The position numbers were made by a program, and so were the translations under genes. The notes below the pieces were generated by a model. That model searched no databases, had not been told where the DNA came from, and saw only the letters and a list, made by a program, of their open reading frames with translations. Shown here piece by piece: positions 1,496-11,759 of a DNA stretch of 14,025 nucleotides. Within the stretch, counting starts at the first letter, position 1. Every line of letters starts with the position of its first letter. The DNA is from a virus. Its lineage: Duplodnaviria > Heunggongvirae > Uroviricota > Caudoviricetes. The DNA lies in IMG/VR virus record IMGVR_UViG_2600255005_000005, one strand, 5' to 3'.

Positions 1496-2902
1496 TCATT
1501 CACGGTTTGCATCATTGATTTCCATCAGCATTACACTCTGATTTTTTAATTCATCGATCACTTCCTCTGGACGGGAATCCTGATCGATAAATTTCAACGC
1601 CTGCAACACCCGAACCGCATCAATCTGACGTATATCACCGCCCTGACGCAATGACTGAACAGCCAGCGCGGAGGATGAGTCAAACACCTGGGCAGATACA
1701 TCCAGTTCAGTGCGCACATCCACATTGCCACCGCAACTCTCTCCGCTCCATTCCGCCATTATCTGGAGAATATTATCGAGGGCATCTTCGAGGGAGTTCG
1801 CCATTGTATAAAGCGGCGAGTGTTCCTGCATCCGCTCTTCATTAGTCTGATCAACAGATTTGGTGGATGTATTTTCAGCCCGCAGAAGTTTAGCGCCGGC
1901 ATGACGCATCTGATTTTCCAGCTTCTCAAGTGATGTTTCGCCAGATTCTATCGCTGCGCCACTATGTTCAACATATTCGAGGCCATTTTTTGTTCTGTCC
2001 TCAAAAATCGTAGCGGTGGATGCACCAACCGTCAGTTCTTCATTCCTGTCCAGCCCGTAGGCCACCAGCAATGGAACGCGGGCAACATGAAGAATATTGT
2101 CCTGCTCGCTCTGGCTTTGCCAGTGCTTGATATTCAGCAAGCCAAGATTAAGCAATGGCGGTGTACCACGCATAAACCCTGTTTTCTTCGTATACAGTGT
2201 TACCAGAGGAATATCATCACGGCTGGTATTCCATGACTCATGAAGCATCCAGACAGATTCGCCATTAGTACCTTCGCTGCGTCGATAAATTTCTACTCGA
2301 CGGGGCATAATATGGCGGATCTGCTCCACCTTCTTCTGCCCGAAATCATCACCATCAATAATGATGACCTCTTTTATACGCAAATCAGTGAGAACAACTT
2401 TCCCTTTTTCAACTTTCGATTTCCATCCAATAACCTGGCGTGGATTCAGCATCGTAACGTACGGGCGACCACCGGCCGCGTTTTCATCGGCTTTTGTCCG
2501 AATCTCGTTCATATCCGTTCGTGGATAGTCCACCAGCGCATGTGCCACACCATACTGAAATGCGAGACTGAAAAATTGCTGCGCCCACACATCCAGTCGG
2601 CTCCCCTCCATGTCGATATTTTCTGCATATTCCCTGATTTTTTCCGGCGTTTCCTCACTCAATACTGTCGGCTCTGCAAATATTCGCCCAATATTTTGTT
2701 TGATGCTTTCTTCATACACAGGAAGTAGCGTAGCCACAGACAGGCGTTTTTTATAAGCGTCTTCATCTTCATTAGGCCATTTGGGGAGATAATTTTCCCC
2801 CTGCCTGCGCATTTCAAGCGTACCGCCCATCAGTGCGTCGTTAATATCCCACGCCTCCAGCATATCGTTATAGTCGAGGTTGGGTGTTGATATATCAGCC
2901 AT
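1496..2902 (-). CDS. putative phage portal protein (called by position immediately downstream of terL)
   Basis: 468-aa acidic protein. ATG at 2902 lies 2 nt after the terL stop (2905-2907). Gene order terS-terL-third gene is the canonical place for portal. No diagnostic motif recognised. Confidence 0.45.
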   Translation of the reverse strand: MADISTPNLDYNDMLEAWDINDALMGGTLEMRRQGENYLPKWPNEDEDAYKKRLSVATLLPVYEESIKQNIGRIFAEPTVLSEETPEKIREYAENIDMEGSRLDVWAQQFFSLAFQYGVAHALVDYPRTDMNEIRTKADENAAGGRPYVTMLNPRQVIGWKSKVEKGKVVLTDLRIKEVIIIDGDDFGQKKVEQIRHIMPRRVEIYRRSEGTNGESVWMLHESWNTSRDDIPLVTLYTKKTGFMRGTPPLLNLGLLNIKHWQSQSEQDNILHVARVPLLVAYGLDRNEELTVGASTATIFEDRTKNGLEYVEHSGAAIESGETSLEKLENQMRHAGAKLLRAENTSTKSVDQTNEERMQEHSPLYTMANSLEDALDNILQIMAEWSGESCGGNVDVRTELDVSAQVFDSSSALAVQSLRQGGDIRQIDAVRVLQALKFIDQDSRPEEVIDELKNQSVMLMEINDANRE

Positions 2903-2904
2903 AA

Positions 2905-4215
2905 TTAAATCCGAAGTGATGTGACTCTTCCGGTCGGTTTGACAATAGGGAATTGCTTAACGATGAAATAACCTCCGGCATCATTCGGGTGATCATTGCC
3001 AGATTTTTTATCAGGCTCCCCCTTATCATCCCAGACCTGTTGCTCCAGAGATTCGGCATATACCGGACAACGCTTCACATTAACTTTATAGCGACGCTCA
3101 CCATTGGCATTGCAGAACATTGCATTCATTGAGTTAACGCGATCTTTTACTGGCGGGTTCGAGCTGTTCACCACAACGTTAAAACCTGCCTGCTTAAGCT
3201 GGGCTATATCCGTCGTACTTGCGTTACTTGATTTTCTGGAATCTCCGGAAGCATCTGGATAAATATAAATCTCCCTCACTTTCCGGTAATCATGCCCGTC
3301 ATACGGCCAGAAGCGTTCTTTAATGATGCGGATCATATCCGGCGTATCGTAGGCATTGATGATTTCAGTTACCGCACATGGAAGCCCCAAACGCAGCACA
3401 TGGACGATTCCCGCCATCTTTCCAACGTTAAAATCCATCCCAATATAAATCGGCTCCCCTGGCTGCTCCACTTCTTCGCAATTATTCAGTTTCCGGTCAA
3501 ACTGATGGTAAACAGTACCACTTGTCAGGTTAGTAAACTGTCCTCGCAGATAGGCTTTAATCAGCTCTGGAGGGTATGATTCAAGAAGCGAAGGAATGTA
3601 ATCTGCTGGCAGGTTCTTTTCATTATCGAAAGTAGATGCCTGCACCAGACCATACAGTGAGGCCAGCTCTGTTTTTTCACGCACGGCTTTAACAAACTGC
3701 TCGTAGACAAATTTGAATCCTTCCGGCGTGGTTGTAACGTCAATACCGTTGCGAAGTCCATCAATCTTATAACGCATACGCGCAATTATCTTGCGCCACG
3801 CCGTTCTGGCTTTTTCCTTCGGCAAAATGTCCAGTTCATCCACCAACGCATTACCAATTTTGAAACCGACGATCGTTTGTGGCTTCTCCATCGATCTGCA
3901 GATAGTGGTTCCCCGATACTGGCGTCCGTAATAAAAGTGAACCTCTTTATTTCCCTCATTAATTTTTACGTTCAATCCCCAGTCAGCAGCAACTTCTTCC
4001 ACTGTAGGGTAAAAAATATCGCGAATTTGGGGATACGTTGGCGCAAAATATCCCTGATTTATACCTGGATGCTCCCAAATCCCCTTGCATATGCCGCCAC
4101 ACCCAACCCATGTTTTGCCCGAGCCAAAACCAGCAATATAGGCTTTAAATTTATGGGGCATTGAAAGAAATCGCGCCTGAGGCACATTAAGCGTCGGAGA
4201 GATCATCTTCATCAC
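2905..4215 (-). CDS. terminase large subunit (ATPase/nuclease)
   Basis: Walker A AGFGSGKT and Walker B-like LVDELD, with a C-terminal acidic nuclease-like region (IYIGMDFN, YIYPDASGD). Start is ambiguous among ATGs at 4215, 4212 and 4206; AAGGAG precedes them and favours 4212. Overlaps the terS 3' end. Confidence 0.85.
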   Translation of the reverse strand: MMKMISPTLNVPQARFLSMPHKFKAYIAGFGSGKTWVGCGGICKGIWEHPGINQGYFAPTYPQIRDIFYPTVEEVAADWGLNVKINEGNKEVHFYYGRQYRGTTICRSMEKPQTIVGFKIGNALVDELDILPKEKARTAWRKIIARMRYKIDGLRNGIDVTTTPEGFKFVYEQFVKAVREKTELASLYGLVQASTFDNEKNLPADYIPSLLESYPPELIKAYLRGQFTNLTSGTVYHQFDRKLNNCEEVEQPGEPIYIGMDFNVGKMAGIVHVLRLGLPCAVTEIINAYDTPDMIRIIKERFWPYDGHDYRKVREIYIYPDASGDSRKSSNASTTDIAQLKQAGFNVVVNSSNPPVKDRVNSMNAMFCNANGERRYKVNVKRCPVYAESLEQQVWDDKGEPDKKSGNDHPNDAGGYFIVKQFPIVKPTGRVTSLRI

Positions 4216-5281
4216 TCCTTACTCTGGCATCAACCACATTAATATTGATCGCCACAGGCTGGGGATGTTCATTATCTTCCACCGTTTCGATCTCTTTGCG
4301 CAGCTTCTGGTTTTCCATTCTGCGCCGTTCAATTTCCAGTTCCTGTAGCCGCTTATCTGCACATAAAGCCCCGCCAGCAGAAAGCAAACGCAACAATTCA
4401 CGCCGGGCGGCAGCCTTATCCTCCAGCAGGATCTCAACGCCGAATTTTCCGAATTTTGCCCCTGCATATAATTGCCGCGCATCCCCATCAAGCAGAGTGG
4501 TATCAGCCATATAAAGCTGTCCCGTTCCCTCACCGCAGCACTTCGGGCAGTCCGGATTGGGTATGGCGTTATCAACAAAGCCGAGGCCTCCATATTCCGG
4601 TTCGGGTTTGCCATCTCTGGAAGCCTGCGCCGCTGCCTTGTCGAATTCTGCTATATCGCGCCACTGGTAGAGATGATTCTCGCCCCAGCAATAACGGCAG
4701 TTAACACGGCGAAATTGTGCAAGCTGATTGGGGTCGGCCAGGACAATGGCCATCAACTGACTCACTAGTAAATCCAGGTCTGCGGTATAGCGTTTCTGGT
4801 ACTGATTGCGGAAGTAGCTGATAGCGCGAAAAACCCTGGCATTTCTAAGCATACGACTGGCGTTGCTGTTAGCTGTCGCACCTTGCCCCTCATAACCGGC
4901 TAGTCGGTACGCCTCTGTCGGCTTTTTACCCTGAGCAACAAGCATCGCAAACTTAGCCTGCTGGTCAGAAATGCCGAATTCATCGGGACAGAACGAAAAT
5001 TCCTCCGCGTCGCCCTCATTCAGGCCCGCATCGAATACTGGCTTTTTTTCCTGAGATTTTTCGTTCCGCTTTTGTGCAGTCTGCGTAGATTTTTTCTGCG
5101 CACTTTTTTGCGCAGTTTTGCGCATTTCTGTCTGCGCATTTTTCGGAGTTTTTTTGATGTAACGACGGGCTGTTGCGTAATTCAGTCCCCTTGCTTCACA
5201 CCATGCCACCGGAGATATACCGGAGCGGGTGTATTCAGCAATATACTCCTGCTGCAACGCCCCCCAGTCCGGTCTGCTCAT
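4187..5281 (-). CDS. terminase small subunit-like DNA-binding protein (unusually long, 364 aa)
   Basis: N-terminal HTH-like region (GISPVAWCEARGLNYATARRYIKK), a Lys/Gln-rich low-complexity linker, a terminase-small-like segment (KKPTEAYRLAGYEGQGATANSNASRMLRNARV), a Cys cluster (CRYCW...CPKCCGEG) and a C-terminal coiled-coil-like tail. Sits immediately upstream of terL with overlap. Confidence 0.6.
   Translation of the reverse strand: MSRPDWGALQQEYIAEYTRSGISPVAWCEARGLNYATARRYIKKTPKNAQTEMRKTAQKSAQKKSTQTAQKRNEKSQEKKPVFDAGLNEGDAEEFSFCPDEFGISDQQAKFAMLVAQGKKPTEAYRLAGYEGQGATANSNASRMLRNARVFRAISYFRNQYQKRYTADLDLLVSQLMAIVLADPNQLAQFRRVNCRYCWGENHLYQWRDIAEFDKAAAQASRDGKPEPEYGGLGFVDNAIPNPDCPKCCGEGTGQLYMADTTLLDGDARQLYAGAKFGKFGVEILLEDKAAARRELLRLLSAGGALCADKRLQELEIERRRMENQKLRKEIETVEDNEHPQPVAININVVDARVRSDEDDLSDA
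5073..5138. repeat. phased array of palindromic hexamers TGCGCA (4 perfect plus TGTGCA and TGCGTA), each followed by a T-tract, at ~10-14 bp spacing inside terS
   Basis: Read directly: tgtgca(5073), tgcgta(5082), tgcgca(5097), tgcgca(5109), tgcgca(5119), tgcgca(5133). Confidence 0.6.
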
Positions 5282-5284
5282 CAG

Positions 5285-5536
5285 TTAGTCCTGATTTTTA
5301 TCCACCCTGAGTAGTTCGCGCAGAGCAAAGGCATCCCCTTTTCTGGCAAGCTTAAACAATGCCGCTCGTAACTCGGCTTCACCTTTCGCTCTGCCCTTAC
5401 GGATGGCCGCATAAAAATCTGTCATTGCTTCCCGATTTTCTTTCAGTCGGTTCAGATCAACATCCAGAACGTCAGCGATTTGTTGTGCAGTCATCCGGCA
5501 CGCTGCCAGAGACTCGACTTTCGAATACGGAATCAT
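5285..5536 (-). CDS. hypothetical small protein (83 aa), possible DNA-binding helper of packaging
   Basis: ATG at 5536 preceded by GGGGTGA. Stop lies 3 nt before the terS start. Basic, helical composition. Confidence 0.45.
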   Translation of the reverse strand: MIPYSKVESLAACRMTAQQIADVLDVDLNRLKENREAMTDFYAAIRKGRAKGEAELRAALFKLARKGDAFALRELLRVDKNQD

Positions 5537-6404
5537 TTGTCACCCCCATTGATATGCAGGGTGTCTTCTTCCTGTATTTTTCGTGAAGGATTTTTACTGC
5601 AGCGTTGTTCCAGGTGACCTGATGGTGAATGCGTTTATGGCTGGCACCCATCAGTGAAATTTTTACGCACGACGGCGCATACATGACGGAGTAAAAACTT
5701 TTAACGTAGGTTCCGGAATCCAGATACAGCTCGGTCATTCCGCCGCTGTTTTTCTGCGTCTGTTTCTGCCCTAACTGGACAGCACCGATCGTCATAAACA
5801 ATTCACCACAGCGACCGAGATTCGTGTACGTATTCACATCCTCGTTAATGCGCCCCATGAATGAGAACGGTCGATCAACCGAACAGATAAAGCTGTTCAT
5901 TGCCTTGCGTTTCACCCACGAAGCATGGCCGCCATTGTCACCAAGAAAATCCCCGCCCTGCGACATAGCGATGGAAAGAGCAGGTATTGATTCGTAGTAC
6001 GCCAGCATTTCAGAAAGGATCGCATCCAGTTTCCTTATCGGAAAATAGGCCTGGTCATAGTTGCGATCCACCCGAAACTGGAACTCGTGATAATCATCAT
6101 CGAGCTGAATGAAGTATTTACACCCGACCAGTTTTGCCAAGTCGAAACAGGCATTACGGGCGTAAAAAATTGAGCGGCGGTCACAGAAATTATCGGCTTC
6201 GTCAAAACGACTGGCGATATCGGCTTTGGAAAACACCAGCACCTGTTCACCAAATTCAGCCATGTACTGATGCCGTGTCTTATCTTCATCATCAACAACG
6301 ATAAAAATTTTCCCGGTATAGCCAGCACGACGCAACGTCCGGTAAGTCAGAACTTTGTCCGGTCGCCCGTGAGTCAGAATAAAGGCGCAAAAATCATCAC
6401 GCAT
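5472..6404 (-). CDS. hypothetical protein with GT-A-fold glycosyltransferase-like motifs (soluble, ~310 aa)
   Basis: Ordered motifs FILTHGRPD, IFIVVDDED and FIQLDDDYHEF (DxD), with no hydrophobic TM segment. Preferred start is the ATG at 6404 (MRDDF), which overlaps the ParB-like stop as ATGCGTGA and is preceded by GGAGGAGGA; the longest ORF would start at 6425. Confidence 0.5.
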   Translation of the reverse strand: MRDDFCAFILTHGRPDKVLTYRTLRRAGYTGKIFIVVDDEDKTRHQYMAEFGEQVLVFSKADIASRFDEADNFCDRRSIFYARNACFDLAKLVGCKYFIQLDDDYHEFQFRVDRNYDQAYFPIRKLDAILSEMLAYYESIPALSIAMSQGGDFLGDNGGHASWVKRKAMNSFICSVDRPFSFMGRINEDVNTYTNLGRCGELFMTIGAVQLGQKQTQKNSGGMTELYLDSGTYVKSFYSVMYAPSCVKISLMGASHKRIHHQVTWNNAAVKILHEKYRKKTPCISMGVTNDSVFESRVSGSVPDDCTTNR

Positions 6405-7188
6405 ATTCCTCCTCCTCACCACCATGCATGATCTCCACCATGCGCTGCGTCATCCGGACAAATCCATTTTCAATAGCCTGCTGATAATCAATGATCACCA
6501 GCGCCGACTCCTCGAAAAAACACTGAATTTCAGCGGGGGCGTGAGCGTAATAGTCCGCAATTCTGCTGAAATTAAACACCGTGTGACGTTCTGCCGCACA
6601 CAGGAGGAATTTCTCAATATCAGGCTCAAGGGAAGCCAAACGTATCCGGCTGATCAGCTCCTGCGTTTTCGTATCGTCGTACAGTTCACTGATATCCGGT
6701 TTACCGCCCGACGGCTCATAAACAGGCGTATCAATTTTCGTCGTATACGGCTCCTCCTCATTTCCTGTACCGGGCAAAACATCCGTCAACAGTTCATCAA
6801 TTTCTGTCGGGATGAAGCCTGTCAGGGAGACATCAAAATCAGCATTGATTAGGTCCGACAGCTCCATCCGCAACAGATCTTCATCCCAGCCAGCATTCAT
6901 CGGCAGGCGATTATCTGCCAGGCGGTACGCCTTTTTCTGCTCATCCGTCAGGCCAGACAGAACAATGACCGGAACAGAATCCATTTTGAGCATTTCAGCC
7001 GCCATAACACGACCGTGACCCGCAATAATTTCGCCCTTTTCGTCAATCAGCACCGGATTAGTCCAGCCGAATTGCTTAATACTTTCTACCAGTTGTGCCA
7101 CCTGCTCAGGGCTGTGCGTCCTGGCGTTGTGCGCATACGGTGACAATTCTTGTAATGGGCGATAGACTATCTTTAATTTCTCGCTCAT
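6397..7188 (-). CDS. ParB-like nuclease domain protein
   Basis: ParB/Srx N-terminal signature (NPVLIDEKGEIIAGHGRVMAA) followed by an acidic C-terminal half. ATG at 7188 with AAGGA just upstream. Confidence 0.75.
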   Translation of the reverse strand: MSEKLKIVYRPLQELSPYAHNARTHSPEQVAQLVESIKQFGWTNPVLIDEKGEIIAGHGRVMAAEMLKMDSVPVIVLSGLTDEQKKAYRLADNRLPMNAGWDEDLLRMELSDLINADFDVSLTGFIPTEIDELLTDVLPGTGNEEEPYTTKIDTPVYEPSGGKPDISELYDDTKTQELISRIRLASLEPDIEKFLLCAAERHTVFNFSRIADYYAHAPAEIQCFFEESALVIIDYQQAIENGFVRMTQRMVEIMHGGEEEEYA

Positions 7189-7325: not shown

Positions 7326-8783
7326 TTAGGAGCGCCAAAAAAAACCTGAAAACAATATAATAACAGGATAAATTTCAAGGCGACCAAGAATCATAGCTAT
7401 GCACATTAAATATTTTGCAATGTCATTAAGCACTCCGAATGACGATGCAGTAGCCCCAAAACCTAATCCCATATTATTAATACATGCAGCCACTGTTGCA
7501 AATGATGTAAGAAAATCATATCCCATACCATTTAACACCAGTATAAAAAACACCGTGAAGAGAGTATAAAGAAAAAAGAAACTCCATACAGACCTCATTA
7601 CACGATCTGTAACTATCTTCCCTCCTACATTTACACTCAACAACGCTCTGGGATGAGAAAGCTGATTTATCTCGTGTTTGCTTTGTTTGAAAAGTATAAG
7701 AAATCGAAGTGACTTAATTCCACCACAAGTTGAACCTATACATCCCCCAAAGAAACTTGACAACAGCAAAAACACTATCGTGTGCGTGGGCCAGCTTGCA
7801 TAATCCTGCGTAGCTAAACCATTATCAGTGAGCATGGAGCTGGCAAGAAAAAACGAATGAATAAAACTTCCATGCAAGTCATACATACCTATATGCCAGA
7901 CCTGGAAAGAGGTAACAATGATCACCCCTAAGGCTATTAACAGAAAGAAACGAAGTTCAATATCTCTGATTAAAGGTTTTATCGTTTTCCTGCTAATAAC
8001 AATATACCAAAGAGTGAAGTTGAAAGCCGATAGCAGGGAAAAAGAACCAGCCACCAGCTCAACCAAATAGTTATTAAAATATCCGATACTCTCGCTATGA
8101 GTTGAGAAACCACCAAGCGAAACTGTGGAAATCCCGTGACAAATAGCATCAAACAAAGGCATTCCTGCAAGTCTATAACAGACAATACAAGCAATACCTA
8201 ATAAAGAATAAGTTATCCACAGTGTCCGTGACGTATCGGCCAGGCGGGGAGTGAGTTTGTCATCCTTAAATGGCCCCGGCATTTCTGACTGATAAAGCTT
8301 TGCACCACCAATACCCAATAATGGCAATACAGCAACCGCCAGAACAATAACTCCTAAACCACCTATAAAATTTAACTGTGACCGATAGTACAAATATGCC
8401 CGAGGTAATGAACTAACATCATCAATTACAGTTGCTCCTGTTGTTGTTATTCCAGAAACCCCTTCAAACAGAGCATCAATGAACGTTAAATTAAGTTCTG
8501 AGTCAATCCATAAAGGGAATGCACTAATAACAGAAAACAAAATCCAAAACATTACAATTATAATAAACCCATCACGGGTACGTAATTGAATGCCAGATTT
8601 CTTAGTTGTATACCACGCTCCGCCACCAATGCAAAAAAATATAACGAAAGTTATAAAGAAAACGAATAGGCTTTTTTCTTTATAAAACAATGCTACAACC
8701 ATTGGTGGCAACATTGAAAGACTATAGAGCCAAACCAGGAACCCACACATATGAGTAACAACTCTTACATGAGATGTATTCAT
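7326..8783 (-). CDS. trkG: TrkG-type potassium uptake protein (Trk/Ktr/HKT family membrane transporter), prophage moron
   Basis: Multi-pass membrane protein whose sequence matches what I recall of E. coli Rac-prophage TrkG (MNTSHVRVVTHMCGFLVWLYSLSMLPP...), with repeated pore-loop glycine motifs. Strongly AT-rich relative to its flanks. First ATG at 8783; an in-frame TTG at 8801 has AAGGTGG 6 nt upstream and is an alternative start. Confidence 0.9.
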   Translation of the reverse strand: MNTSHVRVVTHMCGFLVWLYSLSMLPPMVVALFYKEKSLFVFFITFVIFFCIGGGAWYTTKKSGIQLRTRDGFIIIVMFWILFSVISAFPLWIDSELNLTFIDALFEGVSGITTTGATVIDDVSSLPRAYLYYRSQLNFIGGLGVIVLAVAVLPLLGIGGAKLYQSEMPGPFKDDKLTPRLADTSRTLWITYSLLGIACIVCYRLAGMPLFDAICHGISTVSLGGFSTHSESIGYFNNYLVELVAGSFSLLSAFNFTLWYIVISRKTIKPLIRDIELRFFLLIALGVIIVTSFQVWHIGMYDLHGSFIHSFFLASSMLTDNGLATQDYASWPTHTIVFLLLSSFFGGCIGSTCGGIKSLRFLILFKQSKHEINQLSHPRALLSVNVGGKIVTDRVMRSVWSFFFLYTLFTVFFILVLNGMGYDFLTSFATVAACINNMGLGFGATASSFGVLNDIAKYLMCIAMILGRLEIYPVIILFSGFFWRS

Positions 8784-8920
8784 ATCTAAATATTCTTTCA
8801 ATTATAACCACCTTGCTGCAATATTATGATTATACTGTATAAAATTTAACTCCTCTTAGATCTTACTTCACTGTTCCTTATGAAACAATCATCAAAATGA
8901 ATCATATTGTAGTTAAGATT

Positions 8921-11605: not shown

Positions 11606-11680
<75 letters not shown>

Positions 11681-11683
11681 ATA

Positions 11684-11759
<76 letters not shown>

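Follow-up and report, generated by a model that had tools for sequence, protein, structure and literature searches.

The terminase genes and their prophage context

The window, by which we mean the whole 14,025-nucleotide stretch of DNA analyzed here, belongs to a full-length Rac-type lambdoid prophage of E. coli. In strain Yu5, where an identical stretch is found, the RefSeq annotation places racR, recET, kilR, trkG, lysis genes and a complete head and tail module in the flanks. Of 5426 complete E. coli genomes, 906 contain DNA that matches positions 4187-5540 of the window, which hold terS and the open reading frame (ORF) upstream of it. Every relevant gene of the window is carried on the minus strand, as follows.

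1496-2902, minus strand: portal gene
2905-4215, minus strand: terL, large terminase subunit (Pfam Terminase_6N, E = 4e-33; Terminase_6C, E = 6e-11; RefSeq annotation)
4187-5281, minus strand: terS, small terminase subunit of 364 aa (ORF and translation; RefSeq annotation in the identical E. coli locus)
5153-5281, minus strand: N-terminal three-helix (HTH-like) domain of TerS, aa 1-43, with the putative recognition helix Y35-ATARRY-I42 that contains Arg39
5285-5536, minus strand: small ORF directly upstream of terS (69 aa in RefSeq)
5472-6425, minus strand: TAGT glycosyltransferase (TET-associated type; Pfam TAGT; 'GREB1-related' in RefSeq)
6397-7188, minus strand: ynaK, ParB/Srx-like, intact in the window
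7326-8801, minus strand: trkG, TrkH-family K+ transporter, cargo within the prophage
11606-11680 and 11684-11759, minus strand: tRNA-Gly(tcc) and tRNA-Thr(tgt), in the late region upstream of the lysis genes

The assignment of terS rests on a Pfam Terminase_2 match at aa 122-321 (E = 1.3e-8) and on a match to phrog_51, terminase small subunit (E = 5e-76); a PDB sequence search with TerL gave zero matches. Within the Terminase_2 core, aa 195-250 (~4532-4699) carry a four-cysteine motif, C195-R-Y-C198-W-G ... C245-P-K-C248, that is invariant in all aligned homologues and looks like a zinc-ribbon insert in a small terminase. The small ORF directly upstream matches positions 145-218 of the 319 positions of phrog_309, another small-terminase family (E = 8e-23), and may be what is left of a second TerS type, or an accessory piece of one. 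Farther upstream, the TAGT glycosyltransferase and YnaK are encoded between trkG and terS, which hints at a module for DNA modification; both follow the Rac clade and not the hexamer array described below, and ynaK, intact in the window, is a pseudogene in strain Yu5.

A hexamer array in terS conserved as DNA

Directly 3' of the segment coding for aa 1-43, terS contains an array of short related sites, the coding strand of which (terS nt 144-209) reads KNAQTEMRKTAQKSAQKKSTQTAQK.

5073-5138: six-site hexamer array, terS nt 144-209, proposed TerS recognition (pac) element
5133-5138: site 1, TGCGCA, coding aaT GCG CAg, N-A-Q
5119-5124: site 2, TGCGCA, in another frame than the remaining sites, aTG CGC Aaa, M-R-K (frame 1)
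5109-5114: site 3, TGCGCA, coding acT GCG CAa, T-A-Q
5097-5102: site 4, TGCGCA, coding agT GCG CAg, S-A-Q
5082-5087: site 5, one mismatch, TGCGTA on the plus strand and TACGCA on the coding strand; in most E. coli relatives the site is TGCGCA
5073-5078: site 6, one mismatch, TGTGCA on the plus strand and TGCACA on the coding strand; in about half of the E. coli relatives the site is TGCGCA

The first-pass annotation of this DNA had described six related palindromic hexamers, followed by T-runs, in the 5' part of terS. Both the position (nt 144-209 of a gene for 364 aa) and the T-runs on the plus strand, which are A-runs on the coding strand, are as described, and four of the hexamers are exact TGCGCA; the two one-mismatch copies, TGCGTA and TGTGCA, however, are not palindromes. 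Sites 5 and 6 are nonetheless true homologues of perfect hexamers, as the E. coli relatives make clear. TGCGCA occurs 10 times in the window, and the clustering of four copies within 42 bp was not reproduced in any of 1000 first-order Markov simulations of the window, nor in any of 20000 simulations trained on the A/T-rich linker itself.

Species-representative genomes were fetched by two TerS-core peptide patterns, independently of the array. In all 13 of the core-selected loci that share the N-terminal domain, with protein identities of 37-100%, 3-6 exact TGCGCA hexamers begin at nt 138-147; these loci come from Escherichia, Shigella, Serratia fonticola, Superficieibacter, Buttiauxella, Citrobacter, Raoultella, Enterobacter, Pantoea and an unclassified Enterobacteriaceae MAG. 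The four core-selected loci with another N-terminal domain have zero TGCGCA. More broadly, every relative with the N-terminal domain has between 3 and 10 exact TGCGCA in this position; these relatives span at least 10 named genera, with TerS identity as low as 37-55%.

The reading frame of the hexamers is not fixed. In Klebsiella prophage terS genes of ~70% DNA identity, six exact TGCGCA at the same place read T-A-Q, P-A-Q, L-R and C-A, so that all three frames are used, and in Klebsiella and Citrobacter arrays this happens within one intact ORF. Across 70 arrays chosen without regard to their hexamers (copy number 3-8), the A-Q frame accounts for 284 of 359 hexamers, the x-R frame for 63 and the C-A frame for 12. 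Codon choice follows the DNA motif as well: Ala-Gln dipeptides are coded T|GCG|CA in 281 of 305 cases (92%) within the linker, versus 9 of 109 (8%) in the rest of the same genes. A pure protein-level repeat would use one frame and ordinary codons; what we find is three frames and an Ala-Gln codon choice forced to TGCGCA in the linker only.

Compared in this way across homologous loci, the array is conserved as DNA, independent of reading frame and protein sequence. The earlier annotation had proposed a comparison of homologous terS genes at synonymous sites, and had named retention of the protein linker with loss of the DNA pattern as an outcome that would count against a site; the homologues present the opposite, with DNA hexamers retained where the protein linker is not. 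Its suggestion that site function and coding may coexist is likewise borne out, in that hexamers are kept in three frames while linker protein, hexamer number and spacing vary.

Conservation within the E. coli clade is looser. The six array positions are homologous, deletions between repeats occur, and hexamer positions vary at 0.038 versus 0.053 for the spacers, a difference too small to be informative. In some lineages single sites are often lost, and therefore no individual hexamer is essential.

Several irregular terS genes touch on the array. Many database terS ORFs are only 81-87 aa long, mostly cut by frameshifts in A7-A9 runs between hexamers (window 5090-5160; P0126, P0131, P0138 and P0151, the last present on 62 contigs); the cause is either sequencing error in homopolymers or genuine, frequent inactivation or slippage in the array. 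A protein search with the 50-aa TerS N-terminus returned only ~45 short truncated ORFs, with no diversity. One protein, P0036 (L031/L032), has a frameshifted linker that retains the hexamers, but its three single-A insertions lie in homopolymer runs of short-read-archive assemblies, and we do not count it as evidence because it may be a sequencing artefact. In Rac-SA53 (KU052037; L002 2230-2322), an LT-IIa toxin-carrying Rac-type phage, a 'gpO-terS' fusion has its junction at the array start, with the HTH domain gone and part of the array retained, so that the array region appears to act as a recombination or deletion boundary.

Repeat motif and residue 39 of TerS

TerS residues 1-43 are predicted to form a putative HTH-like DNA-binding domain. 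An AlphaFold2 model of 54 residues, from a shallow alignment, has helices at residues 6-20, 24-31 and 35-41 with pLDDT of ~88 over residues 11-40. The top PDB matches of this model in Foldseek are mostly HTH DNA-binding domains, and because none is significant (E > 0.4) we use them for consistency only; a PDB sequence search with the N-terminal profile gave nothing significant. Six library proteins (P0184, P0234, P0264, P0266, P0290 and P0305) carry 2-6 tandem copies of a domain like this one.

The repeat motif co-varies with a single residue of the third helix. Among 71 unique viral loci, picked by the peptides MA[KR]PDWG or [IV]SPKDWC, both located outside helix 3 and outside the array, at least three TGCGCA accompany Arg39 in 18 of 18 loci and at least three TGCGAA/TTCGCA accompany Lys39 in 53 of 53, although many of the sequences are related and the covariation therefore represents only few independent switches (R39K and the Stx-type helix). 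Within the 43-aa domain (73 versus 19 unique domain sequences), no position other than residue 39 separates the two groups completely, and the closest Arg/Lys domain pair differs at 5 of 46 positions. The peptides agree: among the 144 of 150 matches listed from a library of 1.84 billion proteins, Arg39 helices (ARRY, ARRH, ARQH) occur with AQ repeats and nearly all Lys39 helices (AKRY, AKRH, AKLH, AKDY) with AN/ANS repeats. Further phages, chosen solely by similarity of the N-terminal domain, behave in the same way. Aeromonas phiARM81mr (..SARRYLK) has seven TGCGCA and Vibrio phage douglas (..TARRYIK) has five, in a bipartite array like that of a few relatives; Klebsiella RothD and Yersinia vB_YenM_30.14 (..AKRYIK) have five TGCGAAT/ATTCGCA and no TGCGCA in the array region. 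From this covariation between loci we infer specific recognition of the array by the DNA-binding domain of TerS.

Other N-terminal types have their own repeat at the same place, TGGAAAC in four copies in Serratia aquatilis and GGGGCA in four copies in Erwinia and Izhakiella. Stx-converting phages of the VT2-Sakai/933W type (L234 2501-3307, which is VT2-Sakai terS, and L233 1201-1987) have a related domain with the helix ..NTARTRIK, and an array of four GATCAT at an exact spacing of 12 bp (peptide IDHEIDHKTDHEIDH) followed by one or two TGCGCA; a close relative of this domain with ..TARRYIK has a linker of the TGCGCA type (AQ repeat). Each GATCAT contains a Dam site, as do the pac hexamers of phage P1, and by analogy Stx phages may have a P1-like pac site, possibly one sensitive to Dam.

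Domain and array are found together on Terminase_2 cores (Rac, Klebsiella, Yersinia), on an Sf6_terminase core (locus L212) and on cores without a Pfam match (Aeromonas, Vibrio and the RothD/Stx type). When viral contigs were scanned without bias for three TGCGCA close together, 145 clusters emerged, of which 89 adjoin this domain and 3 the core only; the other 53 are unrelated, most of them perfect tandem repeats. We lean, by a modest margin over even odds, toward viewing the HTH domain and the repeat array that follows it as a portable packaging-specificity cassette with a readable code (Arg39 with TGCGCA, Lys39 with TGCGAA, ARTRI of the Stx type with GATCAT, P1 with TGATCA), shuffled among at least three TerS core types in phages of Enterobacterales, Aeromonas and Vibrio. 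Because the site lies directly 3' of the DNA for its putative reader domain, the two would move as one specificity cassette in terS recombination. If so, the pac sites of hundreds of uncharacterized prophages could be read straight from terS, and the family would offer a natural, mutable system for how a pac-type TerS gains sequence specificity.

Function of the array

The array most likely marks DNA for packaging, because it is conserved as DNA and not as protein and because it changes with a residue of the DNA-binding helix of TerS. We put a probability of roughly 0.75 on its being a cis-acting DNA site that is read by the N-terminal HTH-like domain of the TerS encoded by the same gene, most likely the pac element of the Rac-type phage. 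The first-pass annotation's reading of the array as a terminase-binding, candidate pac site thus gains strong comparative support from DNA-level conservation, codon choice, covariation with residue 39 and a layout shared with P1. Late in infection, TerS oligomers would attach to concatemeric phage DNA at the 4-6 TGCGCA hexamers, each HTH taking one hexamer and neighboring TerS subunits binding the loosely spaced hexamers; bound TerS would then recruit TerL, its presumed partner for cutting and translocation, which would make the first cut nearby and so start a packaging series. In this scheme the physical binding, its stoichiometry and the position of the cut are what we infer from the comparisons made here, and so is the idea that packaging is headful and requires the site.

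The same TerS-array pair could instead act as an operator, with TerS binding the array to regulate its own or late-gene expression or to serve some other non-packaging role, since covariation tells who reads a site and not the outcome of binding. A site inside the gene of its own reader is a layout common in autoregulation, and the palindromic copies give the array region a stable RNA fold (z = -3.7). However, TerS is known to recognize the genome for packaging, the pac site of P1, the only characterized site with this layout, acts in packaging, and the array lies ~140 nt into the ORF and not at a promoter or ribosome-binding site. The RNA hairpin, moreover, would not be kept by the non-palindromic variants (TGCGAAT, GATCAT and the TGGAAAC direct repeats). 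An operator therefore seems to us unlikely, though it is the best of the alternatives. RNA structure as the signal in its own right was considered and rejected, the fold being a by-product of the palindromic copies and non-palindromic motif variants sitting at the same position.

It had also been proposed that the hexamers are spaced about one helical turn apart, so that phased A/T tracts would bend the DNA, and an intrinsic bend of this kind, in which shape rather than hexamer sequence is the signal, has been proposed for SPP1 pacL. A4-A7 runs do separate the hexamers at intervals of roughly 10-15 bp in the window and in most enterobacterial relatives. The hexamers themselves, however, are 9, 15, 12, 10 and 14 bp apart in the window, with a mean of 12, and at such a spacing helical phasing does not hold; across 70 related arrays the spacing ranges over 7-15 bp, is commonly 7, 9, 10, 12, 14 or 15 bp, and is 10-11 bp in only 11% of 289 spacings. 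Nor are the tracts general in the family: Aeromonas-type arrays keep seven hexamers with at most one A4+ run, at 57% GC. In position frequencies over the 70 arrays the hexamer is the invariant part and the flanks are merely A-biased. The phasing claim and its rationale in bending thus fall away, and we regard a bend as the signal as very improbable.

Still less credible is that the hexamers are a by-product of coding, in which an Ala-Gln-Lys-rich linker arose by duplication of a short unit and has no function at the DNA level. Most hexamers (284/359) do read Ala-Gln in a Lys-rich linker of low complexity, and copy number varies with deletions between repeats, but 21% of hexamers lie in the other two frames, the TGCGCA coding of Ala-Gln is a property of the linker (92% vs 8%), and across genera, at 37-55% protein identity, the linker peptide changes but the hexamer stays exact; the motif also switches with TerS residue 39, which coding alone cannot explain. 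An equally slim chance attaches to binding or modification of the array by the ParB/Srx-like YnaK or the TAGT glycosyltransferase, both encoded within 2 kb upstream of terS and the former of a family whose members bind repeated sites, given that TAGT is upstream in 84 of 88 Rac-clade loci vs 5 of 85 other loci with TGCGCA arrays, that Klebsiella phages with six hexamers have unrelated upstream genes, and that the motif follows the TerS residue and not ynaK or TAGT.

If the array is the pac element, it predicts where packaging, and hence generalized or lateral transduction of adjacent host genes, would start. Prophages of Klebsiella, Citrobacter, Enterobacter, Aeromonas and Vibrio carry related cassettes, and Stx-converting phages have an altered version. 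Because one base of the repeat changes along with one Arg/Lys substitution in TerS, the question of TerS specificity can be tested directly. According to a 2022 review, the mechanism of DNA binding by TerS is unclear and controversial, and pac binding in vitro is weak and mostly sequence-independent; this poorly understood specificity is a caution for our reading and, equally, a reason why the family may be useful.

Comparison with known packaging sites

In the literature that we searched, we found no paper that maps packaged ends for Rac-type or Stx-type phages or describes this TGCGCA array, and the ON4706xx records are prophage predictions and not virion DNA. In phage lambda, cosB contains several R elements, near the gene of gpNu1, that are bound by the winged HTH of that protein. 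Several copies of a short element near the gene of the small terminase subunit are thus common to lambda and the window. Lambda is, however, a cos system with defined nicks, and its R elements, which depend on IHF, are longer and not within coding sequence, whereas the hexamers of the window are shorter and inside it.

The precedents named in the first-pass annotation were P22, Sf6 and SPP1, which do share a site within or next to terS, although P1 is much closer, with the same layout behind a possibly related domain. The pacL and pacR sites of SPP1 likewise give TerS several points of contact, inside gene 1 or adjacent to it; they flank the cut, include non-coding DNA and have no short exact repeat in common with the window array. 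In the headful phages P22 and Sf6 the packaging recognition site lies within the small-terminase gene (PMC9611059). Our candidate site also lies inside terS, but the P22 site is a single asymmetric sequence of 22 bp and not a repeat array, and in sequence neither the TerS proteins nor the sites of P22 and Sf6 are related to those of the window. The Sf6 site, as Leavitt et al. reportedly described in Virology in 2013, is in the DNA coding for the DNA-binding domain of TerS, so that domain and site can be exchanged together, and the same logic of joint exchange would apply to the window array.

The pac site of P1 is a 161-bp segment inside pacA with seven TGATCA/G repeats that carry Dam sites, and it is needed for packaging (PMC10028697). 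In the P1 record the hexamers are at pacA nt 194-233 and 324-380, with an annotated IHF site and the cleavage positions between them. Three features of this site are missing from the window, which has one cluster of 4-6 hexamers in place of the two clusters, HEX4 and HEX3, that flank the P1 cleavage site (the nearest further TGCGCA is at 4297, and there is no second cluster in the window), no IHF consensus nearby (WATCAANNNNTTR, zero matches with at most one mismatch between 2702 and 6107) and, the motif being TGCGCA, no GATC in 5073-5138 and thus no control by Dam methylation. The window array also begins right after the HTH-coding part, at nt 144, while the P1 hexamers come ~70 nt later, and the Terminase_2 core with its four-cysteine insert is unlike PacA. 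In both phages, however, 6-bp TG..CA palindromes are repeated inside a small-terminase or pacase gene and overlap its coding sequence, in several copies at an irregular spacing of 7-15 bp, and in both the array is downstream of an N-terminal HTH-like segment with a third helix ..TARRY[LI][RK]; the P1 hexamers come after an 'NTARRYL' helix. The PacA N-terminus has a weak HTH_23 match, and hhalign pairs it with our domain profile at 92% probability over 39 columns with 23% identity and a shared TARRY, a pairwise result for a short domain. By this analogy the window array is laid out as a P1-type pac without Dam sites, second cluster or IHF site. Synonymous recoding of the P1 hexamers lowered wild-type P1 yield and packaging ~9-fold (PMC10028697), and a pac element in the Rac-type prophage would give the same kind of handle with which to build or disable transducing particles.
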